From contig CBDBHK010000035.1 in assembly GCA_965205615.1 (NCBI GenBank), positions 162,620 through 226,619 on the forward strand: a DNA stretch of 64,000 nucleotides, written 5' to 3'. The DNA comes from Acidobacteriota bacterium (GTDB lineage Bacteria > Acidobacteriota > UBA6911 > RPQK01 > CBDAPI01). The first letter of the stretch is position 1. Each line of letters opens with the position of its first letter. The notes under the pieces are model-generated. The model saw only the letters and a program-made list of their open reading frames with translations, ran no database searches and was not told where the DNA came from. A program made the translations under genes and the position numbers. Below, one piece after another: positions 11,506-60,750 of this stretch.

Positions 11506-13209
11506 ATGCCCGGACGGCCTTCTGAAACGGCGATCCAGAGGGATCTTGCAGGCCTTGGAATCCCTTCGATTCTGGCTGCCGGCCTGATTCTGGTTGTGGT
11601 TTCCCTCAGCTCGTTCACGGCCTGGACCTTCCACGGCCGGGAAAGTTTCGAGGCTCTTGCCGGTCTACTTCTGTTCGCTCCCCTGACCACTCTGATGGTC
11701 TGGATCTCCCACTTTCTGCTGGGCCGCAATTTCCTGTTGACGATTACGGAGCTTCACAGTCGCACGGTGCTCGACGAGGATGCTTTTTCGAAGGCCATGC
11801 GCCAGACCTCGCCCTTGAAGACACGGCAGGAGGTGGCGGCCATTGTGATCCCAATCCTTCTGTCTTTATCTGTGGGCCGGTGGGATCAACTGGCGCCGGA
11901 ACCAGTCGAATGGTGGATTCTGCTGGCGGGACCCTGCCTTGCCATTGGGATGATCAGCTGGCTTTTTTACGTGAATCTGGCACGGACGCACCATCTGGCG
12001 TTGATTCACCGGGTACCCGTGGCTTTAGTCAATCTGGCAACCCACTGGAAGGATCCCGTCGTGCGCTGGAGTCTGGCAGTGGGGCTGCACTTCACTCTGA
12101 TCACACTGGTTTCGTTTTTTGTCATCCTGCGCGATCGAAGGCTTGCACTGATTGCGCTTTTTCTGCTGGCCTGTGTGCTCGGCTACATCCTCAACCGGAT
12201 CCTCCCATATGTCATTTCTTCCGTTTACGAGTCGCAGATTCTTTCCGCCTTTGCGCTGATTCTCGTGACCGCCGGCGCGGGAACGGCGGGATATCATTTT
12301 CTGGAAGACTGGCCCTGGTCGGACGGCCTCTATATGACCGTCATTACCATGACAACGGTCGGCTACGGTGAAACCCGTGAGCTGACTCAGATGGGGCGGG
12401 CCTTCACCATGTTGCTGATCGTGACGTCCATCGGAATCTCGGGTTATGCGATTTCAACGGTGGCCGCCTACGTCGTCGAAGGTGAATTCAAACGAGTGTT
12501 TCGAGGTCGAAAAATGGACAATCGAATTGCCAGGATGCAAGACCATATCGTACTTTGCGGCGCCGGGAGAACAGGGCTGGAAATCGCGCAGGAACTTTAC
12601 AAGACCCTGACGCCCTTCGTGATTGTGGAAAGATCCAGGGAGGCTCTGGATAGGCTTCCCTTTCTGGAAGAGATCCCTCACCTGCGCGGTGACGCGACCC
12701 AGGATTCCGTGCTTCGAAGGTCAGGGATCGAGAAGGCAAAGGGACTGCTGGCAGTTCTCCCGGACGATCAGGCCAACGTTTTTCTGGTTCTCACCGTCCG
12801 AGCCTTGAACCCTGAGCTGCGGATCATTGCCCGGCTCGCCGACGATCGGAACCGGGAAAAACTGCTTCGCGCGGGGGCTGACGCGGTTGTCCAGACCCAG
12901 GCGATCGGGGGTCTGAGAATGGCGTCCATGATGATCCGACCTTCTGCCGTGACCTTCCTGGACAAAATGCTGCGCGTGACCGGAGACACGCTGAGAGTCG
13001 AAGAGGTCACCGTAACCGCATCCATGCAGAACCAGACCCTTGGGGCTTTAAACCTGGGCGAGCGAGTCGGACTGCTGCTGGTCGCGTTGCAGCGGCAGGG
13101 GGGAGAGGACTATCAGTTCAGCCCCAGGTCAGATACGGAACTAAAGGAGGGCGACGTTTTGATCGTGATGGGTTCTCCCCGGCAGGTAGCAGAGGCCAGA
13201 AACATCTAG
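11506..13209 (+). CDS. Potassium channel (2TM pore + TrkA-N/TrkA-C) with an extra N-terminal membrane domain
   Basis: TTVGYG selectivity filter, HIVLCGAGRTG, GDAT, and a TrkA-C tail. Confidence 0.88.
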   Translation: MPGRPSETAIQRDLAGLGIPSILAAGLILVVVSLSSFTAWTFHGRESFEALAGLLLFAPLTTLMVWISHFLLGRNFLLTITELHSRTVLDEDAFSKAMRQTSPLKTRQEVAAIVIPILLSLSVGRWDQLAPEPVEWWILLAGPCLAIGMISWLFYVNLARTHHLALIHRVPVALVNLATHWKDPVVRWSLAVGLHFTLITLVSFFVILRDRRLALIALFLLACVLGYILNRILPYVISSVYESQILSAFALILVTAGAGTAGYHFLEDWPWSDGLYMTVITMTTVGYGETRELTQMGRAFTMLLIVTSIGISGYAISTVAAYVVEGEFKRVFRGRKMDNRIARMQDHIVLCGAGRTGLEIAQELYKTLTPFVIVERSREALDRLPFLEEIPHLRGDATQDSVLRRSGIEKAKGLLAVLPDDQANVFLVLTVRALNPELRIIARLADDRNREKLLRAGADAVVQTQAIGGLRMASMMIRPSAVTFLDKMLRVTGDTLRVEEVTVTASMQNQTLGALNLGERVGLLLVALQRQGGEDYQFSPRSDTELKEGDVLIVMGSPRQVAEARNI

Positions 13210-13226
13210 CAGCCCGCTTGTGAAAA

Positions 13227-14690
13227 ATGGAGTTCAGCTCCCTCGATTATCTGATTCTTTTCGCTTATCTCATTGCAACCACTCTGCTGGGTTTTCGGGC
13301 GGGCAGGGGCTCGCGCAACACCCGGCACTACTTTTTAGCCAACCGGGGTCTGCCCTGGTGGGCTCTCTCGCTCTCGATCGTTGCCACCGAGACGAGTACC
13401 CTGACCTTCATCGGTGTCCCGGCCTTTGCCTATGACCGGAATCTGACTTTCCTGCAGCTCGCCCTGGGCTATGTCATCGGCAAAATCCTGGTCAGTTTTG
13501 TTTTGATCCCGTCCTATTTTCGAGGGGACATTCAAAGTGCTTACGAGATCCTGAACTCTCGCTTCGGAGGGAAAGTGAAGAACTTCTCTGCGGGACTGTT
13601 TCAGGTGAATCGGACCCTGGCGGACGGCGTCCGCCTGTTTGCGACCGCCCTGGTTCTCTCCGTCGTGACTCAGATCTCAGACGTGTGGACGGTCGTTATC
13701 ATCGGCGTGATTACAATTATTTACACCTTCTACGGGGGCTTCAAAGCCGTTGTCTGGAACGACGTCCTTCAGCTCTTTATCTACGTTATCGGGGCTATGA
13801 GCGCTTTCTTCGTCCTTCTGGAACGCATCCCCGGGGGATGGCAACAAGTTGCACGTCTGGCTGGAGAATCCGACAAGTTTCAAATCACCGATTTCAGTTT
13901 CTCACTGGCAAACCCTTACACCTTTGCGGGCGCTGTGGCGGGCGGAGCTTTTCTGGCCTTTGCCACGCATGGCACGGATCAGATGATGGTGCAGCGGTAT
14001 CTGGCCTGTTCGGACAGGAGAAAGGCCCAGCAGGGTCTCATACTCAGCGGTCTGATCGTCATGGGTCAGTTCCTGCTCTTCCTGGTGATTGGAATCCTCC
14101 TTTTCAGCTTCTATCAGGATTATCCCAATCCCAATCTACCCTCGGACAGCCAGCGCATTTTTCCCGTCTTCATCGTTGAGGAGCTGCCTCGCGGGATCTC
14201 GGGCCTCGTCATCGCCGCCGTATTTGCCGCCGCCATGTCAACTCTGAGCAGTTCTCTGAACTCCCTCGCCTCTTCCACCTTGAACGACTTCTACCGTCCT
14301 TATCTTGCTCCCCACGCCGGCGACGAACACTACATCCGCCTGTCGCGTTTTTTCACGGCCGGCTGGGGGGTCGTCCTGATCGGTGTTTCCCTCCTGGCTC
14401 GCAACTGGGGAAGCGTGCTGGAGGTAGGACTCGGCATTACGAGCGTCGTCATGGGTGGGGTTCTCGGCGCGTTCCTCCTGGGACAGTGGACCCGGGTCAG
14501 GAGCGAGCTGGCGGGGTTGACGGCCATGATCAGTGGTCTTGGCGTGGTTCTTTTCCTCGAGTTGAACCGTGCCTGTGACTGGAGCCTGCTTCCCCCCGTC
14601 GCCTGGACCTGGTACGTTTTGATCGGGGCTGCTACCACCTTGGTCGTCGGAGTTGTCGTCGAAAGGGTCGCTGGTTACCGGTTACAGTAG
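13227..14690 (+). CDS. Sodium:solute symporter (SSS)
   Basis: YFLANR, SIVATETS, GGFKAVVWND, DQMMVQRYL and AAAMSTLSS motifs. Confidence 0.92.
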   Translation: MEFSSLDYLILFAYLIATTLLGFRAGRGSRNTRHYFLANRGLPWWALSLSIVATETSTLTFIGVPAFAYDRNLTFLQLALGYVIGKILVSFVLIPSYFRGDIQSAYEILNSRFGGKVKNFSAGLFQVNRTLADGVRLFATALVLSVVTQISDVWTVVIIGVITIIYTFYGGFKAVVWNDVLQLFIYVIGAMSAFFVLLERIPGGWQQVARLAGESDKFQITDFSFSLANPYTFAGAVAGGAFLAFATHGTDQMMVQRYLACSDRRKAQQGLILSGLIVMGQFLLFLVIGILLFSFYQDYPNPNLPSDSQRIFPVFIVEELPRGISGLVIAAVFAAAMSTLSSSLNSLASSTLNDFYRPYLAPHAGDEHYIRLSRFFTAGWGVVLIGVSLLARNWGSVLEVGLGITSVVMGGVLGAFLLGQWTRVRSELAGLTAMISGLGVVLFLELNRACDWSLLPPVAWTWYVLIGAATTLVVGVVVERVAGYRLQ

Positions 14691-14710
14691 CGCGCACGAA
14701 GTAAGCGCGT
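14687..14710 (+). repeat. GTAG-type REP-like hairpin
   Basis: GTAGCGCGCACGAAGTAAGCGCGT, matching copies at 39256, 39189 (reverse) and 55607. Its TAG is the SSS stop codon. Confidence 0.7.
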
Positions 14711-14752
14711 GGATCCCCCAGCGTTATGGGCTGACGGTTATTCGTTGCCGGT

Positions 14753-20880: not shown

Positions 20881-23018
20881 CTTCAGAGCACTCCTCGGCA
20901 AACAGGCTCCGAAAGGGTGGGATCCTGCTCGTTCAGTGCTGTCACCTTCCCCAGTTCTTTTACGCGGCCTCACTGCTGCGCCGGCGCCTTCCCGGCGTCC
21001 GAATGGACGCCCTGGTGAAGCGTTCAGCGGCGGTCGACTTCTACCTGGACAAGATGAGTCCATTTTCCTCAATCCTGAACTCCGACTCTTCAACTCTCGG
21101 GGATTCCGGCCACGAACGAATCGTGTTTCCCGGCTTCAATCGTGGATACGGGCGCATCAAGCGGGTGGCCTGGAGGCTTTCCGGAGACCGGCTCGAGCTT
21201 GACTATGAGGCCGGTCTCCAACCCCTCTCCAGGCTCCGCCTGGCCCGGTCGCTGATCCATTCCCTGCATCAGCCCGATGCCTCTTTCCGGAAATACTTCG
21301 CCACCTTTCCCCACCGTCCCCTGGAAAAAAACATCCTCTTCATAGAGAGCTGTCACTCCTCCCTCGTAAAAGCAACCGAGCCTGTCTGGAAACCGGTGCT
21401 GTCAGAACGGTGCAAGCTGACCCGTGTCTCGGGAGAACCTTTACACCGTGCGTTGCGCCAACTGAGGAACCAGCACTTTGACTCCTCTATTACCTTCTTT
21501 TCCGGGGAAACGGGATTCTTCGGACTCAAGACACTGCCCTTCCTGCTGCGGGTGCCCAGGTCGGTGGCCGTTAGTGACAGAGGTGACTTCTTCTACTGTA
21601 CGGCTGGCGGCCTGCTTCGGTACCTGTATCACAGGTTCCGAGTCGGGTCGCCTGTTCCCGGGTTCATCCGGACCATCCTCTTCATTCAGACAGAGGGTGT
21701 TGCCGGTTCTCGCAAGGCGCTGGAAACCCTCGTCTCCAGCCGACTCTTCCCGGACAGCGAAGTTGTTGTTTTGTGCCGCCAGGAGGATGCTCACGAACTC
21801 CGGAGCGTGGATGGCGTCAACCGTGTATTCGAGTTGAGGACCGGTGCGGCCCTGGAAAACTGGCGTACCTTCCAGGCGCTGCGCCGGCTCAACCCGGGGA
21901 TGGTCTCGGCCATACTGTCCGGGCGACCGGTGTTCCGGAAGGCAAAGCTTCTCTTCCTTCTTTTCTGCGACCGCCCCGCCCTGGTCTTCAACCCTGGTCT
22001 GGAATGCTACTTCCTGAGGCCCAGTACGATCCCCCGGATCTTCTCGCGAGAAACGTTCCTTCTCGAAGAACCAGCCGCATCGCGCATTGCAGTCGTGCAA
22101 ACGGAGCACTGCTCGATGCTCAGGGAGTCCATGGCCAGACTCCGGGGCCGCCGCCTCTATCCCGAGGCTGCGATCACCCTTGTCTGCAAGGCTGAAGACG
22201 CCCCTGCGCTGGAGAATCTCCCGGGCGTCGACGTGGTTTTCCACTTCCCTGAAGGCCTGGCTGGCTGGATCCGCCTGGCTCGTCAACTCCGCAAAGAGCG
22301 GCCGGAGGTGATCAGCCTCATTTTCTCAGGTCGCCGGGTGTTTTCGCCGCACAAACTCTGGGTTCTGCTGATTTTTCCGTTTCGTTCGAAGCTCGCCTTC
22401 AACGCCAGGCTTGACGCTTACTGGCTGGGCCCCGTCTCCTGGCCGCGGATCTTCCGCAAAGAGCCTCTCCTCATTGAGTCTGAGAGCCGTGGTGAAACCC
22501 TGCTGATCCAGACCGACTCGGTCTCCACGACCATGGAGGCCCTGGAATATCTGCTTTCCGTCACCGCTGCACGAGGCGCAAGAATTCGCCTCCTGTGCAG
22601 AGCGGAAGATCGGCACCGCTATCTTTCCCGGATCCCCGCAGAGGATGTGAGCACCTGGACACCGGGCTGGTCGATGGACAACCTCAAGCTCCTCATCGGA
22701 CTCTGCAGGGCCCGCGACGCTATCGCCGCCACTCTTTCCGGACAGCCTATCTTCCGTTTGCAAAAGCTGGCCTTTTTTCTCCTCCCGGCTCGGGACCGGC
22801 TGGTTTTCAACGAGAATTCAGATTGCTTCTACATGGCCCGCAGTGGTTTTGCTCGGGCACTCCGGCTTCCCAGCCGTCCAGCCTCCTATCATGGCCGCGG
22901 GCGCACACAGTTACTCCACCAGACACTCAAAATCGCTCTCTGGATTCCTCGCTTCGCCTATTTGCTGGGGTGGCTCACTATCGAAAAGCTGAAGCGAGCT
23001 CGACACCTGGCGGACTAG
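20877..23018 (+). CDS. Protein of about five tandem GT9/heptosyltransferase N-terminal-like modules
   Basis: Repeating ILFIQTE...LC(R/K)xED...LSGxxxF...FN pattern. The GTG start overlaps the upstream TGA. Confidence 0.7.
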   Translation: MTSEHSSANRLRKGGILLVQCCHLPQFFYAASLLRRRLPGVRMDALVKRSAAVDFYLDKMSPFSSILNSDSSTLGDSGHERIVFPGFNRGYGRIKRVAWRLSGDRLELDYEAGLQPLSRLRLARSLIHSLHQPDASFRKYFATFPHRPLEKNILFIESCHSSLVKATEPVWKPVLSERCKLTRVSGEPLHRALRQLRNQHFDSSITFFSGETGFFGLKTLPFLLRVPRSVAVSDRGDFFYCTAGGLLRYLYHRFRVGSPVPGFIRTILFIQTEGVAGSRKALETLVSSRLFPDSEVVVLCRQEDAHELRSVDGVNRVFELRTGAALENWRTFQALRRLNPGMVSAILSGRPVFRKAKLLFLLFCDRPALVFNPGLECYFLRPSTIPRIFSRETFLLEEPAASRIAVVQTEHCSMLRESMARLRGRRLYPEAAITLVCKAEDAPALENLPGVDVVFHFPEGLAGWIRLARQLRKERPEVISLIFSGRRVFSPHKLWVLLIFPFRSKLAFNARLDAYWLGPVSWPRIFRKEPLLIESESRGETLLIQTDSVSTTMEALEYLLSVTAARGARIRLLCRAEDRHRYLSRIPAEDVSTWTPGWSMDNLKLLIGLCRARDAIAATLSGQPIFRLQKLAFFLLPARDRLVFNENSDCFYMARSGFARALRLPSRPASYHGRGRTQLLHQTLKIALWIPRFAYLLGWLTIEKLKRARHLAD

Positions 23019-24755: not shown

Positions 24756-24759
24756 CTAG

Positions 24760-24920: not shown

Positions 24921-24957
24921 CTAGGACGGGTAGTTGTACGCCTTTAGCGTCAGGTAC

Positions 24958-24992
24958 CAACAGCCCGAGGTGGAAATCGCGCGGGCTGCTAG
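24958..24992. repeat. CTAG-family mini-palindrome (CAGCCCG..GGAAATCGCGCGGGCTGCTAG)
   Basis: Matches 44149-44184 and 58419-58474; contains the stop codon of the SnoaL gene. Confidence 0.75.
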
Positions 24993-26422: not shown

Positions 26423-26466
26423 AGCGGTTCGTGGGATTTCCTCCATGAACGGCTAGACCGCCAACC

Positions 26467-29639: not shown

Positions 29640-29645
29640 CAGCCC

Positions 29646-30278: not shown

Positions 30279-30324
30279 AGCGGGAACTCACCCCTCTTCC
30301 GTAACTCAACGGCAGGCTTATGCT

Positions 30325-30400
30325 TGGAGAGTTGGAGGGGCCTGGGACAGCGACCGTTTAAATCCCCCCGGTCGAGGGCCCAGGCCCCTTCAACTCTCCA
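30325..30400. repeat. Long imperfect hairpin with a TTTAAATCCC apical loop
   Basis: Arms TGGAGAGTTGGAGGGGCCTGGG / CCCAGGCCCCTTCAACTCTCCA; inner stem CGACCG/CGGTCG. Confidence 0.7.
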
Positions 30401-30461
30401 GATCCCCGGCTCGCGCCCGGAGTGCCGTGCCGTTCTCGTGTCCTGTTATCCGACCTCCACA

Positions 30462-32073: not shown

Positions 32074-32106
32074 CGATGTTGCCGATCCTCTGTTGTCGCC
32101 CGGCTG

Positions 32107-39153: not shown

Positions 39154-39188
39154 CAGCCCCTGGAGTTTGATGGTTGCGACTGATTCCG

Positions 39189-44148: not shown

Positions 44149-44184
44149 CTAGCAGTCCGTGGTGGAAATCGCGCGGGTCGCTAG
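44149..44184. repeat. CTAG-bounded mini-repeat
   Basis: CTAGCAGTCCGTGGTGGAAATCGCGCGGGTCGCTAG; the right-hand CTAG supplies the stop of 44181-45032. Confidence 0.75.
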
Positions 44185-45032: not shown

Positions 45033-45277
45033 TCAAGAACCCTGGTACAGGTGGAAGTGAACCGAATTGTACTTCCTTCACTCGGGCAGCCCGTGGGCTC
45101 CCGAGGTTATTCTATCTCGCCTGCGGCCACGGAGTCGCGTATTCTGGTATCGAAGAATGATGAACAATCAGTCGGCCGATCTCGTCTTAGACTTAGCGGT
45201 CCTGGTGCACGAAAGCGCGCGCGCCTTTTACCACGGACTGCAGGAATAGCCGCCATTTCTCACCGATGGGACCTGAA

Positions 45278-45344
45278 AAGGCCGCCCTGTTTGGTATAAA
45301 GCGTTTTGAATGAACGTTTTCACACGCAAACGGAGGCGGCCCTT
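45278..45344 (+). promoter_or_regulatory. IS leader hairpin with an extended -10 (TGgTATAAA) in the loop and the RBS (GGAGG) in the 3' arm
   Basis: Arms AAGGCCGCCCTGTTTG / CAAACGGAGGCGGCCCTT directly before ATG 45345. Confidence 0.65.
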
Positions 45345-46760: not shown

Positions 46761-46994
46761 GGTCTGTCCCGATCAAACGCCCCCAAAAACGAAATCGTTC
46801 CATCGCTCAGGCCGAGCTCTGCCTGAATACATTCCGTCACGCTCTTCCGAACCCGAAAAACGCTCCATTCACGACCCTCCACACCACCGCATCACTCGAC
46901 CTGGACCGGATCGATAGCGAAACTCTCAGAAAACCGTTCCGGCCTGCCAAAATCACCTTCATTTCCAAATCGGTGATCTATGCGGGATAGTGCC

Positions 46995-48781: not shown

Positions 48782-48817
48782 GGGTTACTGGTTACCGGTA
48801 ACCACCTACCACCCAAG

Positions 48818-49467
48818 TAAGTATCCCCCGGCAAAGCCGGGGGCTTTAATCTTGTGAGCCGCTCAAAGCGGACTTGACGTTGCCGCTACCGCGGCCACTT
48901 GTGCCACCTACAGGTGGCTTGGCTACAGCAGCCTGAGCTGATCCTGGCGACGATCTTCTGCTTCTTGCCGCCGGATATACTCACGAATCACTTTCTCATC
49001 CCGACCCACCGTCGATACGAAGTATCCGCGAGCCCAGAAGTGCTGTCCAACAAAGTTACGCCGACTCTCTGAAAAGTTCCTCGCAATGTGGATGGCGCTT
49101 TTCCCTTTGATGTACCCGATCACCTGCGCCACAGAAAACTTTGGCGGAATCGAGATCATCACGTGCACGTGATCCGGCAGCAGGTGGCCCTCTTCAATCA
49201 AGCTTTCCTTCTGCCCAGCCAACCGTCGCAGCACCTGACCGAGATGTCTGCGCAGCTCCCCATAAATCAACTTCTTGCGGTACTTGGGGATGAACACCAC
49301 ATGGTACTTACACTCCCATTTTGTATGCTGTAAGCTCTTGTAGTTACTCATAAAACTCCTTTTCGTGATGCTTTGCTCGGCTCACGGAAGGGAGTTTTTT
49401 CACCTATTCCCGGAACTGTCAAACTCTGGCTGCCTCCCCGGCAGAGCCGGGGGGACTCCTTACGGGT
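48818..49467 (-). mobile_element. IS200-type element (tnpA only); ends approximate
   Basis: Subterminal hairpins CCCCCGGCAAAGCCGGGGG (about 48825) and CCCCGGCAGAGCCGGGG (about 49436) flank tnpA. Confidence 0.85.
48923..49351 (-). CDS. tnpA: IS200/IS605 Y1 HUH transposase
   Basis: KYHVVFIPKYR, DHVH (HUH), KGKS, FWARGY and EYIRRQ (catalytic Tyr) motifs. Confidence 0.95.
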   Translation of the reverse strand: MSNYKSLQHTKWECKYHVVFIPKYRKKLIYGELRRHLGQVLRRLAGQKESLIEEGHLLPDHVHVMISIPPKFSVAQVIGYIKGKSAIHIARNFSESRRNFVGQHFWARGYFVSTVGRDEKVIREYIRRQEAEDRRQDQLRLL

Positions 49468-49471
49468 CTAG

Positions 49472-51208
49472 CCCGCATAGATCACCGATTTGGAAATGAA
49501 GGTAATTTTGGCAGGCCGGAACGGTTTTCTGAGAGTTTCGCTATCGATCCGGTCCAGGTCGAGTGATGCGGTGGTGTGGATGGTCGTGAATGGAGCGTTT
49601 TTCGGGTTCGGAAGAGCGTGACGGAATGTATTCAGGCAGAGCTCGGCCTGAGCGATGGAACGATTTCGTTTTTGGGGGCGTTTGATCGGGACAGACCTCA
49701 GCAGCGCAGAGGAATGGCCTGGAGGTTTCGAACGACGGCAGCGAAGACCTCGCTGTAGGGATAGGCTTCCGACATGGAGATCCAGACGTGGCGGACCGTG
49801 AGGCGGACCTGGGCGCCGATCTTGAGGAGCTTCAAGCGAATCGTCTGACACTGAGCGCGAGCCAGGGGGGTCTGCTTCAGTCCGAGACGACGCAAGGCGT
49901 GCATGAGCATGTAGGCGGCGGAGGACAGATACAGCCGGAGTTGATTGGCGCGCATCGTTGCCGCGCTGGTCCGGTCGGCGAACAGACCCAACTGCTGTTC
50001 TTTTATGCGGTTCTCCATGTCGCCCCGCGCACAGTAGAAGTCTTCGTAGAGCGCGCGGGCCCCCAGGCGTTCCGGCGACAGGGAGGTGACGACGAATCGG
50101 GGATTGGCGCCTTTGTCCAGGAACTCGGCCTTGCCGACGACGCGTCGCTCCGAGGTCTAACTGTGGCGAGTCCGGTAGCGGAAATCCTTGAACACCCGCG
50201 CCGGTCGCCCGGTGGCGTTGAACTCGGCTTCGGCCTGAGTCATCGCTTCGGCGCTCTCTGACTTGAGCCGATCATTGTTGGCCAACCCCATCACGTAATC
50301 CACGTGATGGTCTTCACACCAGCGGAGCAAGTCATCCCGGCAAAAGCCCGAGTCGGCCCGGATGACGATCGAGACCTCCGGCCAGCTCTGCCGCATCCGG
50401 CCGACGATCCGTTCCAGTTCCTCCACCGATCCCGCGGCCCCATCGATATTGGAACACCGCAACCGGGCGCACAGCAGATGCTCCCCCGAGAAGATGTACA
50501 GCGGGAGATAACAGTAGTGGCGGTAGTAACCGTGAAAGAACCGGCCTTCCTGCTGGCCATGGATCGGGTCGTCGGTCGCATCCAGATCCAGCACCATCTC
50601 CTCGGGCGCCGATTCGTGGGACTCCACGAAGGCATCCACCATCCAGCCGTCGATCCGGTCCGGGTCCATCGCGATCTTCTTGTACCGCTCCTGCTCATCG
50701 ACCTCGGCGCCGGTCAACTCCAACCGGTTCAGCGTACACCTGCCCGCCAGCGCCTTCCCCCGATCTGAGGCCTGCCGCCGCCTCTCCCCCAACGGATCGG
50801 CCTTATTCACCGCCACCGCCAGCATCGGATCGGTGCGCAACTGATCATGATCGTTCAGATCCTCGTACCCCAGACAGAGTCCGTAGATGCGCTGCCCCAA
50901 CAACTCCTCGACCGTGTGTTCGATCAACCGCGGATCCCGGTGATCCCTGAAACACTCAGCCAGTCCGGCGATCAGACCCGTCCCCCTCTCGACCTCTCGC
51001 AACAGCAGCACCCCTGCATCGGAGGTGATCTTCCCGCCGTCGAACCGCGCCTTCACTTTGCGTTGAAATAGTCCGTGAAATTCGAACCTGGCTTGTTTAC
51101 ACTCTGTTCTCATAAGGGCCGCCTCCGTTTGGCTTTGAAGTCGTTCTCGTCAAACGCTTTATACCAAACAGGGCGGCCTTTTCAGGTCCCATCGGTGAGA
51201 AATGGCGG
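49472..51208 (-). mobile_element. IS1380-family element, copy 3 (CTAG target duplication, variant leader)
   Basis: 1737 bp; CTAG at 49468-49471 and 51209-51212. Confidence 0.95.
49698..51113 (-). pseudogene. IS1380 transposase with a TGG>TAG nonsense codon
   Basis: Stop at 50157-50159, the same site as in copy 1. Confidence 0.92.
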
Positions 51209-52637
51209 CTAGAACCCGGGCAGAAACCGCGCCCAGAAATAAGCCAGGGCCAGCCCCAGATACGCCAGGGCGCTCAGCAGGAGGGAACCGGTGGCCAGAC
51301 GGGAGGGACCCAGATCTCCCAGCCAGCCACGCATCTTCAGGTTCAGGGCCAGCAGGCCAAAAGAATAAGACACAGTGGCGACAACGCCGATGACTCCGGT
51401 GAGCAGTATCAGGGTGCCGGGTTGTGCCAGCGGCATCGTCACCGAGGTCAGCACGGTCAACAGAGCAAAGTAGATCCCGTACAAACGGCGGGTCGAGAGC
51501 GACCTGAACCAAGCGCTGAGCAGGCGGCTGCAATCGGTATGCGTGCGAGCCACACTGTCGGCGGTCGCGATCCAGGTGTCAGCCAGAAAAGCTGCGGCCA
51601 CGATCAGAAACACCGCCTTTCCCCAGGCACCCCAGCTGTGGGAGAAGAATTCGGACTGGACGACGGCCAGCTCCTCGCCCATCGGCCACAAACCCTGGGG
51701 ATAGAGGAAGGCAAAGGCCAGCAGGCAGGTCATGAGCGTCGTGAAGATGTTCCCGATGACGCCCACCAGGCTGTCGAACAGGAGGAACCGCCTCCACTTG
51801 CTGAGGCGGCTCGCCGCCTGTTCCGTGGCAACAGGACGGAAGCCTTCATCGGGGATTTCTTCTTCTTGTCCTGATAGCCCTGTGACGCGGCCGACATAGG
51901 CGGGCCAAGCCGCAGCCCTTCTCCCGCACCCAGTAGCTGTAAAACAGCATCCAGAATCCTCCCAGGCCTGCAAAGGTCACGGCGGTGAGAAGTCGTGTCA
52001 GATCCTCCGCCGCCTCAAACGGTCGGCTGAGGCCTGCCGGAATCACCAGGGCTTTACCGAATTGGCCAATCTGAGAGGAAACCTCAGATTGAAAGCAGGC
52101 CGCCAGCAATCCGGCCACGGTTACAACCGCAACCAGCCACATGAACCGCTCAATGAGAGTGTAGACAACTTTGCTCGCCAGTACCGCCCCACCAAAGACC
52201 AGGATCATGAAGTACGCCCAGGCCAGTCTCTGGTAGGGCCTTGGGTCGATGTTTTCTGGAAACCAGTGGCCTGAGGGCAGGCCTGTCAATTCGACGAGAG
52301 CCGTGGCTCCCGCTGAAGCAAAGGCCCCAAACCACAGAAAATGAACGATGAACAGCACCCACAAGAAGATCAAATACCAGCGGTGGACTCGGAAAAACCC
52401 CTGAAAGATGGATTCTCCGGTAAGGATCGTATAGTGCCCGACGTTGTAGAGAAGCGGAACCTGGATCAGGCAAGCGGGGATCAGCAGGAAAAGAAAGCCC
52501 AGACCGTACTTGGCAACCAGATACGGCCACCAGATCAGTTCGCCGCTCCCCTGAGCCAGCGCCATCCACACGATTCCCGGACCCAGCATCGCCAGGTAAC
52601 CCGGAAAGCGGGGAACCTCCCTGGGTTCAAATGGCAC
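51209..52637 (-). CDS. Nramp/MntH-like (YcsG type) transporter, frameshifted near 51900
   Basis: GPGIVW.A.AQGSGELIWWP..AKYG and YSYWVREKG motifs. An extra C in GGCCCGCC shifts the frame away from the AYVGRVT continuation. Start is uncertain. Confidence 0.78.
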
Positions 52638-53872: not shown

Positions 53873-55591
53873 ATGATGAGTACTCGACCCTGGATCACCG
53901 TCTTTCTGATTTTTGCCGTCATTGTAAGTCTCGCCCTGGTCCTTAGCTTCTGGGCCTACTGGCAACTCAGTCGTCCGCCCTCGGTATCCAAGGACACGAT
54001 CGTTGAGCTTGCCATTGGAGGCACGATTTACGAGGTGCCTCCCGAGAGCGCCTTCTACGAAGTCTTCGAGGCCAGCAAGCCCACCCTCTACGATCTCTGG
54101 GAACTATTTGAGCTGGCCTCGGTGGACGAGGATGTGTCCTCGATCTACCTCGAAGTGCAGCCCTTGAGCATGACCTTCGGACAAATCGAGGAAATAAGAG
54201 AGGGCCTGCAGAAGTTCCGGGCATCGGGCAAGAAGATCCACGCATTTCTGTCTCTGGACATGGCCGGCGAGAACGAGATCTATCTGGCCTCGGCTGCGGA
54301 TACGCTTTCCATCAACCCGGGTTCGGGCCTCCTCCTGAACGGGCTCGTTGCGGAGATTCAATTTTACAAGGGAACGCTGCAAAAGCTTGGGATCAAGCCC
54401 GAGTTCATCCAGTTCAAAGAGTTCAAGAGCCCGGAACAATACGGTCGGGAAAACATGAGTGAGCCCATCCGCTCGATGCTGCAGTCGATTCTCGAGGACA
54501 TGGAAAGCCGCTTCGTGAAGTCAGTAGCCGCCGACCGCGGAATCGAAGAATCGGAGTTGCGCGAGATCATCGACCAGGGGATGATCAATGCCCCGGCGGC
54601 CGTGACCCGAGGAGTCATCGACCAGGCCGGGTATCGCCACCAGGTGCAGGAGCGTTTGGCGAAGGAAGCCGGGCGATCCAAGTATGAGGCCATGAGTGCG
54701 GCCGACTATCTTGCTGCCGCACGCTCACGCCTGTCATCGGAAGGGCCCCAGGTTGCTCTGATCGGTGGAACCGGGCTGATCACTTCAGGGAAAAGCGATT
54801 CCTTCGGTCAGACGCTGGGCGGCAGTTCCATGGCCAAGACCCTCCGCGAGGTTCGTGAGTCCGGGGAATACGATGCCGTGCTCTTTCGTGTCAATAGTCC
54901 GGGCGGATCCGCGGTCGGCTCGGATATGGTCTGGCGCGAGGTACAACTTCTGGAAAAGGCGGGCATTCCCGTCATCGTTTCGATGTCGGCGGTAGCCGGC
55001 TCGGGTGGCTACTACATCGCAATGGCCGCCAGTAAGATCGTCAGCCAGCCCAGCACCATTACGGGTTCCATCGGCGTCATTTTTGGAAAGTTTGACCTGG
55101 CGGGTCTCTATGAATGGGTCGGCATCAGCGTTGACCGCGTCAAGACATCGCCCAATGCGGACCTGTTTTCCTTCTCCACCTCTATGACACCAGAGCAGCG
55201 AGGGCAGGTCATCGCCTGGATGCAGGAAATTTACGATGCCTTCGTGTCCAAGGCGGCAGAAGGGAGAGGGATGGAATTCGCACAGCTCGAGGAGAAGGCC
55301 CGCGGCCGGATTTACACTGGTGAGCAAGCCCGCGAGATCGGTCTGGTCGATGACATCGGCGGCTTCCCGAAGGCGCTCGAATACGTCCGAGCGGCGCTCG
55401 AACTCGACGACGATGCCAAGGTCAGGCTGATCCGCTTGCCCAAACCCAAGAGCGTGTGGGAAACCCTTTCCGAGCTGGGGACGATTCGAACCCGGCAATC
55501 AAATACCGTGGTTGACCTGGTCAAGGCGGAACTGGATGGCCTTCAGACACCCGGGCCTCGCCTGCTTCTACCCAGTATCAGCATCCACTAG
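53873..55591 (+). CDS. sppA: Signal peptide peptidase SppA (67K type)
   Basis: N-terminal TM, FKSPE, RVNSPGGS, GSGGYY, TITGSIGV and GRIYTG motifs. Confidence 0.93.
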   Translation: MMSTRPWITVFLIFAVIVSLALVLSFWAYWQLSRPPSVSKDTIVELAIGGTIYEVPPESAFYEVFEASKPTLYDLWELFELASVDEDVSSIYLEVQPLSMTFGQIEEIREGLQKFRASGKKIHAFLSLDMAGENEIYLASAADTLSINPGSGLLLNGLVAEIQFYKGTLQKLGIKPEFIQFKEFKSPEQYGRENMSEPIRSMLQSILEDMESRFVKSVAADRGIEESELREIIDQGMINAPAAVTRGVIDQAGYRHQVQERLAKEAGRSKYEAMSAADYLAAARSRLSSEGPQVALIGGTGLITSGKSDSFGQTLGGSSMAKTLREVRESGEYDAVLFRVNSPGGSAVGSDMVWREVQLLEKAGIPVIVSMSAVAGSGGYYIAMAASKIVSQPSTITGSIGVIFGKFDLAGLYEWVGISVDRVKTSPNADLFSFSTSMTPEQRGQVIAWMQEIYDAFVSKAAEGRGMEFAQLEEKARGRIYTGEQAREIGLVDDIGGFPKALEYVRAALELDDDAKVRLIRLPKPKSVWETLSELGTIRTRQSNTVVDLVKAELDGLQTPGPRLLLPSISIH

Positions 55592-55606
55592 CAGTCCGGG
55601 GCTACG

Positions 55607-55709
55607 GTAGCGCGCACCCAGTGAGCGCGTGAATTGCAGCTTGCGCGTGAATTGCATTCAGCGACGTTCAGCAGGGGCAGCCAGCCCGGATTATTCACGT
55701 CCGGGCTAC
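55607..55709. repeat. GTAG REP-like units between the convergent sppA and yjbQ genes
   Basis: GTAGCGCGCACCCAGTGAGCGCGT at 55607-55630, a GCGCGTGAATTGCA duplication, and reverse-strand GTAGCCCGGA..TCCGGGCT overlapping the yjbQ stop. Confidence 0.65.
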
Positions 55710-57303: not shown

Positions 57304-58407
57304 TTGGATTTCTCAGAGCTGACCTTAGGCGTCGAAGAAGAGTACCAAATCATCGATAGAGAGAGCCGGGAGCTCACTTCCTTCGTGGGAGACGTACTCG
57401 AACAGGGGGCGACCGTCTTTCGGGACCAGGTGAAGCCCGAGTTTCTGCAGTCCCAGGTAGAGATCGGAAGCCACGTCTGCCGCAATGTTCGAGAAGCGAG
57501 GCAGGAGGTGACTCGTCTGCGCGGTCTGGTTTCTGAAACCGCCGAACGAAACGGTTGCTGCATCGTCTCCGCCGGTACTCATCCGTTTTCCCGATGGCAG
57601 GATCAGCTCATTACCGAGAAAGACCGCTACAAGGCACTGCTCACAACGATGAAGGTCATTGCCCAGCGGCTGCTCATATTCGGCATGCACGTCCATGTGG
57701 GAATCCCGGATCGCCAGCTTCGCATCGACGTCATGAATCAGCTCACCTATTTCATGCCTCATGCCCTCAGTCTTTCCACGTCCTCACCGTTCTGGCTGGG
57801 TCAACACACCGGACTCAAGTCCTACCGGAGTGTCATTTTTGAGGACCTTCCGCGGACAGGGCTTCCCGAATACTTCAGGACGGCCTCCGAATACGATCAG
57901 TTCCTCGATATCCTGATCAAGACGAACTGTATTGATGAACCCACCAAGATCTGGTGGGACATTCGACCGCACCCCAGGTTCCCCACGCTGGAGATTCGAA
58001 TCTGTGACGCCATAACAAAGGTTGACGATGTCATTTCGGTCGTCGCTCTACTCCAGGCAATGGTTGCCAAGATGATTCAGTTGCGCCTGAACAATCAGAC
58101 CTGGCGCCACTACCGAAAGGCTCTCGTCGAGGAAAACAAGTGGCGTGCCATCAAGGACGGCCTGGACGGGCACCTTCTCGACCTGGGGAAGACCGAGCAG
58201 GTCCCGACACGCCTCCTGATCGAAGAGATGATTGAATTCGTGGACGATGTCGTCGACTCTCTCGACTCCCGGCAGGAGGTCGAAGGAGTGCGACGCATCC
58301 TTGACGAGGGCACCAGCGCGGACAGGCAGATCTTGACCTATCAGAAGACAGGAAGCCTGGAAGCCGTCGTCGACATGCTGGCCGAGGAAACTATGGCGGG
58401 CTGCTAG
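57304..58407 (+). CDS. Carboxylate-amine ligase / glutamate--cysteine ligase 2 (YbdK family)
   Basis: TLGVEEEYQ, GTHPF, FGMHVHVG, SSPFW, WWDIRP and TLEIRICD motifs. Confidence 0.92.
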   Translation: MDFSELTLGVEEEYQIIDRESRELTSFVGDVLEQGATVFRDQVKPEFLQSQVEIGSHVCRNVREARQEVTRLRGLVSETAERNGCCIVSAGTHPFSRWQDQLITEKDRYKALLTTMKVIAQRLLIFGMHVHVGIPDRQLRIDVMNQLTYFMPHALSLSTSSPFWLGQHTGLKSYRSVIFEDLPRTGLPEYFRTASEYDQFLDILIKTNCIDEPTKIWWDIRPHPRFPTLEIRICDAITKVDDVISVVALLQAMVAKMIQLRLNNQTWRHYRKALVEENKWRAIKDGLDGHLLDLGKTEQVPTRLLIEEMIEFVDDVVDSLDSRQEVEGVRRILDEGTSADRQILTYQKTGSLEAVVDMLAEETMAGC

Positions 58408-58418
58408 TGCACAGAGCC

Positions 58419-58474
58419 CTGGCAGTCCGTTGTGGAAATCGCGCGGGCCGTGCGATTTTCACTACGGGCTGCTA
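58419..58474. repeat. Full palindromic form of the CTAG mini-repeat
   Basis: CAGTCCGTTGTGGAAATCGCGCGG paired with CCGTGCGATTTTCACTACGGGCTG. Confidence 0.75.
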
Positions 58475-58516
58475 CGGTTCTCAACCCCGGCTCCAGATTT
58501 GGGGAGGGAGGGCTGC

Positions 58517-60750
58517 CTACTTTTCCCGGTCAGCGAGCTTCTTCCGGAGTAGCGCCGGTTGTGGCTTTCGCAGCAGCAACCCGAAAAGCGCAAGCAGAGC
58601 AAGTCCCGCAATCGACGACCACCACACGAAGGGCAGCCTCCACGTGTCGATTCCGTTCCCCCCGGCCTGGGCTCTGTTCGTGTCGGCGCTCAGGACCAGT
58701 CTGCTTTCGCCACCAAGGTCCTTTTCCAGCAGGTTGTCGACGATTGGAGGTACCCGAGATACCGAAACAGAGCTTTGCAGCAGCAATGTCGGTTCAGCCG
58801 CTGGAACTGGGGCCGGCCGCTCCAGAACCACGGGCGAGACCCGGGCAGCAACCGGCAGCGCTGCAACGGGGCCCAGCGATACTTTCTTCACAACAGCCTC
58901 TTTTTGCAACTGCGCTTTTGTTTCCACGCTTCCCGAAGGAATTGATGCCGCCCCTTCGAATGTCACGTTGACGCTTGCCCGCGAGGCGCTCAGAGCGGAG
59001 AGTTCCCGAACCGGCATAGCAGGCATAGGCATAGGTAACACTTGCAGGGCCAGCGGAGCGACCCGGCCGGTGAACACACTCTCGACGCCGTGCTCGGTCC
59101 TTTCTTCCGGTATGGACCCCGAGCCCCCCCCCTATCAACGACGGCAAAGGTCTCTTCGGTAGTTTGCGGCGAGTGTACCGTTTCCTTGAACACCGGCACA
59201 AGACTCAGTTCGCCGCGTTCGTCATAGTCTCCAGCAACCGTGTGTGGAGTACCGGGAGCAGCCTCAGTGAGTGCCGCTGCCGGGTCAGGGGCTGTAGAAT
59301 CCCGGCCCTGAACCAGTTGTATCACCTGCAGATTCCGGTGGAGCGGCAGTTGCGCGAGTTGAGCAACGCCCGGATTCTCTCCTAGATCTCCGGAAACTTC
59401 CTGACGCGTGGCCGCAGCCACCGGTTCGGAATCGATTGACCCGAACGGTTTCGATACAGTCCCAGAATCCGCCAGTTGGCCGACCGATCCTCCGAGACCC
59501 GCGGGGAGTTCCACAAGTTCCACGACACCCGGTGCGAGAACTCTCTGAACATAAGTCGGCTTTCTCGACTCGGCAGGGTTGGGCCCAGGCTCGGCAGTCT
59601 CATCCGTTGAAGAGAGGCTGACGGAAACGCTGGAAGGGATCGCTGAAGGCGAATCTGCGCCCCGCGACGGGTCGGTCGGACCGGAAATTCTGATCTGTCC
59701 GGCTTTCAATTCAACGATCGCGTAGGTGCTCAACGAAGGCACCGATTGGATATCAACGGTGGTTCCATCGCCAGGGCTGAGTGAAACGACTACCGGGATG
59801 GGAAGACGTGAGGCGACGACTGACAGCTGCAGTGCCAGGTCCTCGTTGCCAGGTAAATACTGGAGCGCCTTCTTCAACGCGCGGTGGGCCTCAGCCCACT
59901 GTTCGGCAGCCATCAGTTCCTCACCGAGGCGGGCGTATGCTTCACCGGCAGGCAATCCGTGCCTGAGATGCGCCAGGGCGCCATCGCTCTCGCCGATCCT
60001 GACGAGAGCCGTTGCCAGAAGCTCTCGGGCCGGTGTTGATGTTGGGTTCAGCTCGAGAGCCCGTTTGCCATAGCTTTGAGCCAGCTTCCACTGCTCCGCC
60101 CCGAGGGAGGCTTGAGCGAGTGCCAGGAGAAGAGACAGCCGATCCGGGTAAGCGCGATGGGCTTCTTTGAGCGCTTCCAACGACCTCTCGTATTCACCTC
60201 GCTGCAGATAAATCTTGCCCAGAAGGGCCAGATTCGCCGGCGCTCGGTCCAGGTGGACCGCCTGCCGGGCATGATAAAGGGCAGACGAGGTAGAGCCCAT
60301 TTTCTCCCAGACGAGAGCCAGACCCGACTCGATTTCGGGATCGACTGCGGGCATTGTGCGCAGCCTGTCCAAGGTCTCAAACGCCTTGACCAGTTCCCCT
60401 TCCTTAATCAAGGCCCGCGCCAGCTCTTTCTGCACTTTCAGGTTGTTTGGACCTTCAGCCGCACGGTCTGCAAGCTCCCGGACCTGGGCACTCATGATCG
60501 CGACCGGGCCATCCTCAACGGCCCTGATACGATCGCCCTCGGATGTCCGATACATCGTCTCGAGATACTCGGAGATCTGTTTGGAGCTGACCGACCTATA
60601 GGAACTCGGATCAGCCTTGGGTTTTGTCTCGCCAAGCGTCACGCTTTGCGGATGGGCTGGTTGAACCGACCTGGGCCCACACCCGTGACCGAAAAGACAG
60701 AACAGTCCGGCCGCAGCCACTCCTCTTTTAGCTCGCTTTTGTTTGAACAA
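58517..60750 (-). CDS. TadD-like TPR lipoprotein with a low-complexity stalk and C-terminal TM anchor, frameshifted at G9 (59124-59132)
   Basis: Lipobox-like FGHGC and TPRs. G10 would read DRGGGSGSIPEE... into ORF 58517-59077, which ends in a TM helix and basic tail. Confidence 0.7.

Follow-up and report, generated by a model that had tools for sequence, protein, structure and literature searches.

Mobile elements with NTAG target words at the TAG stop codons of an Acidobacteriota genome

Why do most genes in one stretch of a bacterial genome end in TAG, and what part in this have the mobile elements that sit on those stop codons? The question is raised by 64,000 nt, hereafter the window, from a soil bacterium of the Acidobacteriota (GCA_965205615.1, contig CBDBHK010000035.1, positions 162,620-226,619). 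A first-pass annotation had proposed that element families targeting NTAG use stop codons as landing sites and that their remnants supply new stops and 3' ends, shaping stop usage genome-wide. Genes in the window and in the genome it comes from (G000) were called with a home-made caller, and stop counts were taken from genes outside long repeats; repeats of at least 200 bp make up 16% of this IS-laden genome. Pfam matches in the window agree with the earlier gene names. The relatives were partial samples of 0.08 to 0.6 Mb each, five from the same genus (G001, G003, G004, G005, and G006) and three from the same order. G006, the closest relative, was sampled over 605 kb, and G001 over 80 kb.

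TAG is the main stop in the window, as first claimed, but not in the genome. The 46 non-IS genes of the window end in TAG 28 times, in TGA 16 times, and in TAA twice; the first count, 28, 15, and 2 of 45, was right for TAG and TAA and one short for TGA. Genome-wide, the 3777 non-repeat genes carry TGA at 52.2%, TAG at 32.4%, and TAA at 15.4%. The proportions are 52.7, 33.5, and 13.9% in a high-scoring subset of 2387 genes, and all 4525 called genes comprise 2309 TGA, 1502 TAG, and 714 TAA stops. In the partial samples of relatives the TAG share ranges from 28 to 34% within the genus (G006, 28.4% of 483 genes; G005, 31.2% of 401; G003, 33.6% of 259; and, from smaller samples, G001, 34% of 64, and G004, 29% of 69) and from 26 to 34% within the order (34% of 94, 34% of 103, and 26% of 97 genes).

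The word CTAGCAGYC occurs 8 times in the window versus 0.63 expected, a count that 0 of 100 shuffles reached, and all eight sites involve a stop codon. Six lie at the K+ channel, SnoaL, CoA ligase, LysR, AGCS, and SppA stops, where the first-pass annotation had placed them (LysR possibly by chance); the others are an intact element at 44149 and a minus-strand site at 58399-58407 that overlaps the GCS2 stop. The source of the word is an 18-nt sequence, CAGCCCGTGGTGRAAGTC, the terminal inverted repeat of an IS1182/IS5-like IS of 1445 bp. The copy on contig C8 reads CTAG-CAGCCCGTGGTGGAAGT...ACTTTCACCACGGGCTG-CTAG, the repeats bracketing a transposase gene; this IS shows a 4-bp target duplication of the preferred form YTAR. 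Its 452-aa protein matches Pfam DUF772 (7.5e-17) and DDE_Tnp_1 (8.2e-07) and scores 173.5 bits against NCBIfam IS1182 (cut-off 270) and 81 against IS5 (cut-off 140). Homologous transposase genes were matched in 16 genomes besides G000. In all four of the other genomes examined, CAGCCCGTGGTGRAAGTC brackets the homologues (60-63% identity) about 1.45 kb apart, with 0 to 2 mismatches to a 15-nt pattern; the 4-bp flanks in the three that were read are TTAA/TTAA, ATGG/ATGG, and CTGT/CTAG.

One full copy of CAGCCCGTGGTGRAAGTC and the 10-nt tip of the other repeat form a 28-nt mini-palindrome. Because the mini-palindrome is built from the IS repeat, CTAGCAGYC is the CTAG target duplication followed by the tip of that repeat, the 5 nt with which the element begins. 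Of 96 regex matches, 55 have the 28-nt core and 8 are flanked by CTAG at both ends. CTAG is rare in this genome (observed/expected, 0.46); among 421 arm-like matches, the 4-mer before the arm is CTAG in 80, TTAG in 22, and CTAA in 7. By its IS-shared ends, lack of coding capacity, many copies, and same flanks, the mini-palindrome would qualify as a MITE, and at 28 nt between flanks it is far below the usual MITE length.

Three IS1380 copies lie in the window. Copy 1 (23015..24759, minus strand) has a broken transposase frame and CTAG at 23015-23018 and 24756-24759; copy 2 (45246..46990, plus strand; 1737 bp) has an intact 484-aa transposase and ATAG on both flanks; copy 3 (49468..51212, minus strand) again has a broken frame, with CTAG at 49468-49471 and 51209-51212. 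The left CTAG of copy 1 contains the stop of the gene at 20793-23018, and the right CTAG of copy 3 contains that of the minus-strand gene at 51209-51973. The flanks thus confirm the earlier claim that the CTAG duplicated by copies 1 and 3 coincides with a gene's stop, which falls in one member of each pair. The transposase scores 384 bits against NF033539 (cut-off 180). Both ends were found for 121 copies in the genome, and 76 have identical 4-nt flanks: CTAG in 58, CTAA in 7, TTAG in 6, ATAG in 3, and other words in 2. The reconstructed empty sites of these copies are 32 stops, 30 intergenic, and 14 coding, against 123, 214, and 263, respectively, for 600 sampled CTAGs.

The window also holds an IS200/IS605 element (48817..49467, minus strand; transposase, NF033573, 143 bits, cut-off 55), whose left end abuts the CTAG at 49468-49471. 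Transposases of this kind are single-strand Y1 enzymes that insert 3' of a fixed tetranucleotide. Of two such families in the genome, one has its left end 3' of TTAG in 30 of 32 copies and the other, to which the window copy belongs (family 2), 3' of CTAG in 5 of 5; no target duplication was seen. Since few copies sit on a stop (3/32 and 1/5), the family adds little to the pattern.

The sites of the mini-palindrome in the window range from intact to barely recognizable. An intact element, CTAG-28 nt-CTAG, occupies 44149..44184 (plus strand), its right CTAG being the stop of the minus-strand gene at 44181-45032, and a near-intact one lies behind the SnoaL stop (24957..24992, minus strand; CTAG at 24989-24992). 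A decayed copy sits on the CTAG stop of AGCS (39150..39182, plus strand); the same position carries a copy in G006 too, and in G005 and G001 the CTAG stop is bare. The K+ channel stop (13207-13209) lies in a CTAG followed by a decayed arm (13206..13229, plus strand) that reaches into the ATG of the SSS gene at 13227. Its orthologues in G003 and G005 have the same last residue and a TGA stop, and the spacer to SSS is 17 nt here versus several hundred nucleotides there. The sppA stop (CTAG; 55589-55591) is followed by a short arm remnant and a REP family C hairpin with GTAG at 55607-55610 (55588..55631, plus strand). At GCS2 the mini-palindrome core (58423-58450) lies 16 nt downstream of the CTAG stop (58404..58450, plus strand), and the Cys-TAG end is conserved in four relatives. 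CTAGCAGCC at the LysR stop (32102..32110, minus strand) has 5 nt of the arm and may be chance or a far-decayed copy, because it has just CAGCC in common with the element. The junction CTAG CAGCCC GTGG at 29636..29649 (plus strand) holds the CoA ligase stop (29637-29639) and the GTG start of Sua5/YrdC at 29646. Sua5 is inverted relative to four relatives, whose Sua5 starts with ATG, and the CoA ligase tail is four residues shorter than theirs and altered.

Does the element prefer stops, or is the word a feature of gene ends? The enrichment of CTAG elements at stops over other CTAG sites, which had been put forward for checking, is real: arm-adjacent CTAGs comprise 37 stops, 30 intergenic sites, and 6 coding sites against 306, 660, and 941 for other CTAGs (odds ratio for stops, 2.66; p=1.4e-4). 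The TAG is a gene stop for 39 of 94 mini-palindrome arms, and 100 of 391 CTAG stop sites are occupied by elements. Occupied versus free sites number 44/291 at stops, 18/95 in convergent spacers, and 13/208 in divergent spacers, so that occupancy at stops is about that of convergent spacers and above that of divergent ones. Overall, CTAG elements occur at stops about twice as often as at intergenic CTAGs. This excess may be more than tolerance alone can account for; the elements might truly prefer stops, persist there longer, or be detected there more easily because selection preserves the TAG.

The same numbers bear on the idea that selection maintains the word behind the stop as a 3'-end signal, such as a terminator, an RNA-stabilizing hairpin, or a termination-context or stalling element, and that it is no transposon scar. 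The arms peak sharply at offset 0 (39 on the stop versus 11 at offsets 1-150), with a two- to threefold excess over intergenic CTAG sites. Among the TAG+CAGYCC stops, arm orientation is indeterminable in 46 of 64, and a second arm plus YTAR closes the element in 7 of 64; a 22-nt word is kept across phyla in about 2600 stretches, by a tool estimate. There is also a precedent, as work cited in PMC12306157 has REPs under 16 nt away from a stop down-regulating translation. Yet the same 18 nt bracket transposase genes here and in the four other genomes, and the interiors that follow the word in other genomes are diverse, 1 of 96 being a palindrome. Arms point toward and away from the gene about evenly (10 versus 8), and the folding of single copies is no stronger than that of shuffled sequences (z -0.57, -0.65). 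The peak itself is subject to ascertainment: copies are recognized by arm plus TAG, and selection holds the TAG at stops only. A selected 3'-end signal is therefore improbable, and we retain a transposon origin for the word.

The REP-type hairpins behave differently from the CTAG elements in that they lack the excess at stops. Three families, each a short hairpin with an unpaired GTAG at one end and mostly extragenic, have 86, 100, and 81 heads outside long repeats, and 236 of 266 heads are non-coding or on a stop. These comprise 27 stops and 209 non-coding sites against 374 and 2697 for free GTAGs (odds ratio, 0.93; p=0.84); the distribution of the heads over GTAG sites exactly matches the supply of non-coding ones. 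The proposal that NTAG elements land on stops stands insofar as several unrelated families do so, with REPs following availability. GTAG hairpins had been described as overlapping the SSS, ribB, and yjbQ stops. The first is clear: REP family C (GTAGCGCGCAC..., about 80 copies) at 14687..14712 (plus strand) contains the SSS stop (14688-14690) in its GTAG, and the SSS C terminus is two residues longer than those of three relatives. The other two are weaker. At yjbQ (55684..55709, minus strand; stop 55706-55708 in GTAG), the hairpin GCCCGGA...TCCGGGC (z -2.57) resembles the tip of another IS end, CCCGGATTATGCA, and the TAG is ancestral, being present in 4 of 5 relatives. At ribBA (8150..8190, minus strand), only a weak hairpin of no counted family (z -0.56) lies behind the GTAG stop, and the relatives' proteins are one residue shorter and end in TGA.

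Whether elements create stops or occupy them was assessed with a single orthologue per gene; the intergenic DNA is too diverged for clean alignment of filled and empty mini-palindrome sites. Plain TAG stops have TAG in the orthologue in 94 of 161 cases and the same protein end in 122 of 161; for mini-palindrome TAG stops the counts are 10 of 17 and 14 of 17, the former being more than a draw from a 31% background would readily give (p=0.016). TAG is equally ancestral in the two sets and the ends are unchanged; therefore, the elements appear mostly to land on pre-existing stops, and the proposal that remnants generally replace stops and 3' ends is not supported. It survives for single cases. 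REP-headed stops share the protein end in 4 of 10 versus 122 of 161 for plain stops (p=0.02), and within the window the mini-palindrome stops look derived, to judge from a by-eye tally of small numbers in which the closest relative has TAG in 1 of 5 such genes versus 9 of 12 elsewhere.

A stronger form of the proposal is that TAG arrives with the elements, which displace the original stops and 3' ends and so raise TAG usage genome-wide. It has several observations in its favor. A mini-palindrome, REP, or long repeat lies immediately next to 194 of 1224 TAG stops versus 49 of 1973 TGA and 35 of 580 TAA stops. TAG makes up 22-45% of stops in the syntenic region of relatives versus 63-68% here, and TAG found in G000 only versus in the relative only stands at 16:3, 15:3, 14:1, 8:1, and 5:0. 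At CoA ligase an element arm comes with a new tail and stop, and protein ends are changed at 6 of 10 REP-headed genes. However, REP-B heads, REP-C heads, and either IS1380 end number zero in all five same-genus samples, and REP-A heads are few (one in G006, two in G001, none in the other three), yet these relatives have the same TAG share, an outcome that the first-pass annotation had itself named as refuting its proposal. Dropping all element-abutted stops lowers TAG from 32.4% to 29.4%, an effect of at most 3 percentage points. Target-duplicating elements require YTAR beforehand, the mini-palindrome stops match plain stops in orthologue TAG with the protein end mostly kept, and the syntenic asymmetry is the regression to the mean expected for the most TAG-rich window of the genome. 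The element families do not explain the genome's TAG frequency, and donated TAGs as its cause are very improbable and, at genome scale, largely refuted.

Could the window's own TAG majority have a regional cause, such as a local burst of transposition or rearrangement or a recombination tract? Its 28 of 46 has a binomial tail of 6.8e-5 and is the maximum among 2651 sliding 46-gene windows, a value reached by the maximum in 14 of 300 label shuffles. Of the 64 mini-palindrome stops in the genome, 5 lie in the window, as do 4 of the 103 TAG stops abutted by an IS, the Sua5 inversion, and the shrunken K+ channel-SSS spacer. However, the shuffle result (14 of 300) is borderline, and tails of this kind are to be expected when many windows are scanned. 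Clustering across the genome is weak (402 lag-1 TAG-TAG pairs versus 393 +/- 13 in shuffles), and TAG is also abundant at those stops of the window that lack an element (18 of 32; binomial p=0.004, without correction for the window being the genome's extreme), with no mechanism at hand. TAG counts per 46-gene block are mildly over-dispersed (variance, 14.5 versus a binomial 10.1), and therefore pure sampling noise is not proven for the window. A regional process is nonetheless unlikely.

A reading that takes in the observed anatomy, target words, and site distribution of the elements together with stop usage and the conservation of stops in orthologues runs as follows. Four element types, DDE IS, the 28-nt mini-palindrome, IS200/IS605, and REP hairpins, use an NTAG word. 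The DDE IS (IS1380 and the IS1182/IS5-like IS) duplicate a 4-bp YTAR target, mostly CTAG. Insertions in coding CTAGs would be purged by selection, and a TAG stop inside CTAG would be restored by the target duplication, so that stops would account for much of the harmless target space. The exceptions are stops headed by a REP and the junction of CoA ligase with Sua5, at which an arm gives both the stop and the GTG start. We consider it likely that the elements mostly occupy existing TAG stops, that selection accounts for their depletion elsewhere, and that the TAG majority in the window is for the most part an extreme of sampling. A more active role, in which stop CTAGs are preferred or longer-lived homes and arms are recycled as gene ends and starts, with local bursts of stop turnover that include the window's TAG majority, seems to us unlikely.

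The elements belong to known kinds. The source IS of the mini-palindrome resembles IS5/IS1182-type elements in its DUF772 and DDE_Tnp_1 domains, terminal inverted repeats, 4-bp flanks that are mostly CTAG, and short non-coding derivatives; PMC5493358 and PMC5009759 describe IS5 as duplicating Py-T-A-Pu, most commonly CTAG. It differs in that its best NCBIfam score (IS1182) lies under the cut-off, which leaves the family unsettled, and in that homologues elsewhere include non-YTAR flanks (ATGG). The IS1380 copies match their family in a transposase above the NCBIfam cut-off, a length of 1737 bp, and a 4-bp duplication, and differ in the strong CTAG preference measured here (58/76 copies), for which a narrow literature search found no paper, though it may be described already. 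The IS200/IS605 copies likewise have a transposase above the cut-off and a left end directly 3' of a fixed tetranucleotide, but they depart from the stop pattern, with few copies at stops. The REP families differ from published GTAG REPs (PMC3733652; Di Nocera, De Gregorio and Rocco 2013) in that no RAYT gene flanked by REPs was found in this assembly, which is 94.6% complete and may lack the gene; three RAYT-like loci, none of them within 500 nt of a REP head, score 77.5, 77.5, and 69.9 bits (cut-off, 80). The families are also essentially confined to this genome among the sampled relatives, a few REP-A heads aside. TAG-donating REPs have already been reported, PMC3733652 stating that GTAG REP termini often supply a TAG stop, and the families described here share with those REPs the hairpin with an unpaired GTAG, the extragenic location, and, in 27 heads, a GTAG that provides the TAG stop of a gene.

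The motif CTAGCAGYC, found eight times in the window (G000:C35:162620-226619) against 0.63 expected, occurs 250 times in the genome under study (G000; 5.42-Mb assembly, 36 contigs, 59% G+C). About half of 60 listed sites of the 250, judged by eye, share one identical flank within a high-copy insertion sequence (IS), and the other copies are an arm of the palindrome CTAG-CAGYCCGYGGTGRAARTCSCRCGGRCTG-CTAG, a mini-palindrome whose 28-nt core was present in 55 of 96 regular-expression matches. Of 421 arm-like matches, 80 were preceded by CTAG, 22 by TTAG, and 7 by CTAA. A 1445-bp IS has this arm as its terminal inverted repeat; G000 carries the IS as one complete copy, three incomplete or interrupted copies, and one short fragment. 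The complete copy begins with CAGCCCGTGGTGGAAGT and ends with ACTTTCACCACGGGCTG, directly flanked by CTAG on both sides. Therefore, CTAGCAGYC combines a target duplication with a transposon end, and the 28-nt palindrome is a minimal IS derivative that joins one full repeat to 10 nt from the tip of the other. The 452-aa product of the IS contains DUF772 and DDE_Tnp_1 domains; its top NCBIfam model is IS1182, but because the score (173.5 bits) is under the cut-off of 270, we call the element IS1182/IS5-like. This ties the stop-hugging repeat to an autonomous element and makes the IS1182/IS5-like transposase a candidate for the mobilizing enzyme.

Of 200 other Acidobacteriota genomes sampled, 16 contained homologous transposase genes. 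In the four examined (60 to 63% identity), the genes were bracketed by the same repeat with zero to two mismatches, about 1.45 kb apart, and the 4-bp flanks read in three genomes were TTAA/TTAA, ATGG/ATGG, and CTGT/CTAG. An estimated 2600 stored stretches of public genomes, spread over Acidobacteriota, Planctomycetota, Myxococcota, and other phyla, carry the 22-nt word CTAG+CAGYCCGYGGTGRAARTC, in which CTAG precedes the 18-nt repeat; the interiors behind it are diverse there, with 1 of 96 forming a palindrome. Some of these interiors recur (e.g., ...CTGCATTCGAC...GCGATGCATCC...), which suggests further nonautonomous families with the same ends. A frame check across phyla, at 92 loci from other genomes, found the 30 upstream codons open in the TAG frame at 57 loci and in the other frames at 50 and 36, counts made uninformative by the G+C content of the loci. 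An IS110-family element of ∼1.53 kb (G000:C26:89118-90650, with 10 further copies, none within the window; NF033542, "RNA-guided transposase," 308 bits, cut-off 140) lies inside the 18-nt repeat or the mini-palindrome, between CCCGT and GGTG, in all 11 copies shown, so that a transposon end is the target of another transposon. In one case, the interrupted end belongs to the IS1182/IS5-like IS.

Other mobile elements of G000 also adjoin NTAG. An IS1380-family element (transposase score of 384 bits versus an NCBIfam cut-off of 180) is present in 121 copies with both ends, and the 76 copies with identical 4-nt flanks had CTAG (58), CTAA (7), TTAG (6), ATAG (3), or another sequence (2). Reading the flanks in the window confirmed that the CTAG duplicated by copies 1 and 3 holds a gene stop, as had been proposed; the duplicated target of copy 2 is ATAG. 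Of two IS200/IS605 families, one lies 3' of TTAG in 30 of 32 copies and the other 3' of CTAG in 5 of 5, and several other IS ends adjoin CTAG or CTAA on the 3' side. In the relative G007 (stretch L008), the sppA ortholog stops with TAA, and this codon lies in the GTAAGTATCC terminus of an IS200 family-2 copy, so that an IS end appears to carry the stop there. G000 also contains three families of short hairpins with an unpaired GTAG head (REP-A, REP-B, and REP-C): GTAGGGGCGACCCTGGTGGTCGCCC, GTAGGGGCCGGCCTTGTGCCGGCCC, and GTAGCGCGCAC...

Genes were called with a custom caller that takes all open reading frames of at least 60 codons, scores them with a self-trained codon log-odds model, and makes a greedy nonoverlapping choice. 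It called 4525 genes covering 86.5% of G000, and its calls in the window agree with Pfam domains and with the gene names of the first-pass annotation. Repeats of at least 200 bp make up 16.3% of the genome by self-BLAST; genes overlapping them were treated as IS genes and excluded, leaving 3777.

CTAG is rare in G000 (2745 sites, observed/expected ratio of 0.46). The CTAG sites adjoining a mini-palindrome arm fell at 37 stops, 30 intergenic positions, and 6 coding positions, compared to 306, 660, and 941 for other CTAG sites (stop versus intergenic, odds ratio of 2.66, P = 1.4e-4). Reconstructed empty sites of IS1380 gave 32, 30, and 14, against 123, 214, and 263 in a control sample of 600 CTAG sites, from which an odds ratio of ∼1.9 was calculated by hand for stop versus intergenic sites. 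For both CTAG elements, then, coding sites are strongly depleted and stops are occupied about twice as often as intergenic sites. Counted by site type, the ratio of occupied to free sites was 44/291 at stops, 18/95 in convergent spacers, 31/330 in tandem spacers, and 13/208 in divergent spacers; stop occupancy thus resembles that of convergent spacers and exceeds that of the other two, an order that is what insertion tolerance near 3' ends predicts. The twofold excess at stops could possibly reflect selection, longer retention, or easier recognition where selection preserves TAG. Of the REP-headed GTAG sites, 27 were at stops, 209 in noncoding sequence, and 30 in coding sequence, versus 374, 2697, and 16802 free ones, so that the heads are distributed over GTAG sites in proportion to noncoding availability (stop versus noncoding, odds ratio of 0.93, P = 0.84). 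In all, 100 of 391 CTAG stop sites hold a mini-palindrome, an IS1380 copy, or some other long repeat. Annotators should regard a hairpin or IS end right on a TAG stop as normal in such genomes.

Whether such elements supply new stops and 3' ends, as had been suggested, was assessed in ∼1.5 Mb of sequence from relatives (817 pairs, 657 genes), with one closest ortholog per gene. Plain TAG stops (161 genes) had TAG in 94 orthologs and the same protein end in 122. For mini-palindrome stops (17 genes) the counts were 10 and 14, for IS-abutted stops (15 genes) 7 and 10, and for REP-headed stops (10 genes) 6 and 4 (same protein end, P = 0.02 versus plain). Protein ends are mostly unchanged at the CTAG elements; REPs more often accompany a shifted protein end. 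Conservation of TAG in the mini-palindrome orthologs, 10 of 17 versus a background usage of 31% (P = 0.016), argues that CTAG elements mostly occupy stops probably older than themselves; two or three of those ten TAG-bearing relatives have a mini-palindrome at the same site. Alignments of filled and empty sites at nine mini-palindrome loci against the closest relative, G006, revealed no clean duplication, the spacers being too diverged.

Among window genes, AGCS ends in a bare CTAG stop in the same-genus genomes G005 and G001, while G006 has a mini-palindrome copy at the same site, the only fairly clear filled/empty case. The SppA stop is TAG in three of five relatives in one comparison and three of eight in another, and the stop of gene 44181-45032 is TAG in G006 and G001. 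At these three stops, TAG probably predates the element. For the K+ channel and SnoaL genes, the protein end is unchanged in relatives (72 to 91% identical) and the stop there is TGA or TAA, at a distance where about 4 in 10 stops differ anyway (plain TAG kept in 94/161). The CoA ligase tail is four residues shorter than, and unlike, those of all four relatives, and the next gene, Sua5/YrdC (window 29636-30430), is inverted relative to four same-genus genomes. At the left junction, CTAG CAGCCC GTG, the arm provides both the CoA ligase stop and the Sua5 GTG start, which is ATG in the relatives. The CoA ligase has a real new end at an element arm. A second inverted element was sought at the right end of the inversion (30278-30427), and none was found. 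Behind both Sua5 and LysR (30320-30400 and 31990-32090) is another long repeat, palindromic and with a CCGTTTAAATCCC core. Between the K+ channel and SSS genes (13206-13229), G000 has a spacer of 17 nt made of a decayed element arm, compared with several hundred nucleotides in G003 and G005; the difference hints at a deletion with one end at the element. Many stops in G003, G005, G001, and G004 are immediately followed by short tandemly repeated units of the GTTCCAC and GAACCCA types; the commonest 11-mer in the G003 sample is GGAACGTGGAA (37 copies in 300 kb), and G000 largely lacks such arrays at corresponding sites.

TAG had been called the main stop, and in the window it is: 46 nonrepeat genes end in 28 TAG, 16 TGA, and 2 TAA codons, matching an earlier hand count of 28, 15, and 2 except for one TGA. 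Genome-wide, TGA is the commonest stop (1973 of 3777 nonrepeat genes, 52.2%), followed by TAG (1224, 32.4%) and TAA (580, 15.4%), and usage was alike in a high-scoring subset of 2387 genes. A changed genetic code with TGA or TAG reassigned was rejected, since frames end normally under table 11 and no stop is commoner than TGA. A mini-palindrome, REP, or long repeat directly adjoins 194 of 1224 TAG stops, 49 of 1973 TGA stops, and 35 of 580 TAA stops; without these, the TAG share falls only to 29.4%.

The same caller was applied to 0.08 to 0.6 Mb from each of five same-genus genomes, which show good synteny with G000. Their TAG shares were 28.4% in G006 (483 genes), 31.2% in G005 (401 genes), and 33.6% in G003 (259 genes), with 34% in G001 and 29% in G004 from small samples of 64 and 69 genes; three genomes at the order level gave 34%, 34%, and 26% (94 to 103 genes each). 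None of the five same-genus samples contains a REP-B head, a REP-C head, or either IS1380 end; REP-A was seen once in G006 and twice in G001, and the density of the CTAG arm varies. None of the results draws on the unpublished genome G012. Because, in these samples, relatives without the G000-specific repeats share its TAG level, the proposal that these elements shape stop usage genome-wide is refuted by the criterion stated with it. A TAG share of ∼30% is a clade trait independent of the repeats. It is higher than the bacterial average of ∼20% given in PMC3549826, and the pattern described here has no bearing on the open question of bacterial TAG usage.

The window has the top TAG count among all 2651 sliding 46-gene windows (binomial tail, 6.8e-5), and an equally high maximum was reached in 14 of 300 shuffles of the stop labels. 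Genome-wide clustering of TAG stops is weak (402 adjacent TAG-TAG pairs versus 393 ± 13; block variance of 14.5 versus 10.1 binomial). Window genes without an element at their stop are also TAG rich (18 of 32). In the syntenic region, TAG makes up 63 to 68% of stops in G000 and 22 to 45% in relatives, a contrast that any comparison with the most extreme window would be expected to show. We consider a real regional process behind the majority unlikely and read it mainly as a tail event, with a contribution from locally concentrated elements.

No REP-flanked RAYT gene was found in G000. None of its three RAYT-like genes has flanking REP heads, and two, G000:C19:40041-40451(-) and C30:227109-227519(+), are identical tyrosine transposase genes that score 77.5 bits (cut-off 80) and lie between inverted repeats of their own (ggtcggaccacgttttctctc) rather than between REPs; RAYT genes beside the REPs were therefore rejected. 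One of the identical pair adjoins an IS1380 end. Hairpins a few bases from a stop could affect termination. Four of six stretches folded no better than shuffled sequences; the two that did were the yjbQ hairpin and one at window 48775-48815. The latter, a strong hairpin, GTAGGGGTTACTGGTTACCGGTAACCACCTACC (z = -2.49), begins at the GTAG stop of a VWA-domain gene (47828-48781) that also ends in TAG in relatives.

The observation is real but local, and the elements are ordinary representatives of known kinds. The target duplication of IS5 is Py-T-A-Pu, mostly CTAG, according to PMC5493358 and PMC5009759. Work cited in PMC12306157 describes REPs near stops affecting translation. A literature search on CTAG elements landing on stop codons, including IS1380 and CTAG targets, returned no such paper among the partial texts it covered. 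The GTAG-headed hairpins match the GTAG-tagged REPs described by Di Nocera et al. (PMC3733652), whose termini, according to that paper, often supply a TAG stop; the donation of TAG stops by GTAG REPs is thus already in print. What would be new here is the link between the CTAG repeat on stops and an IS1182/IS5-like transposase.
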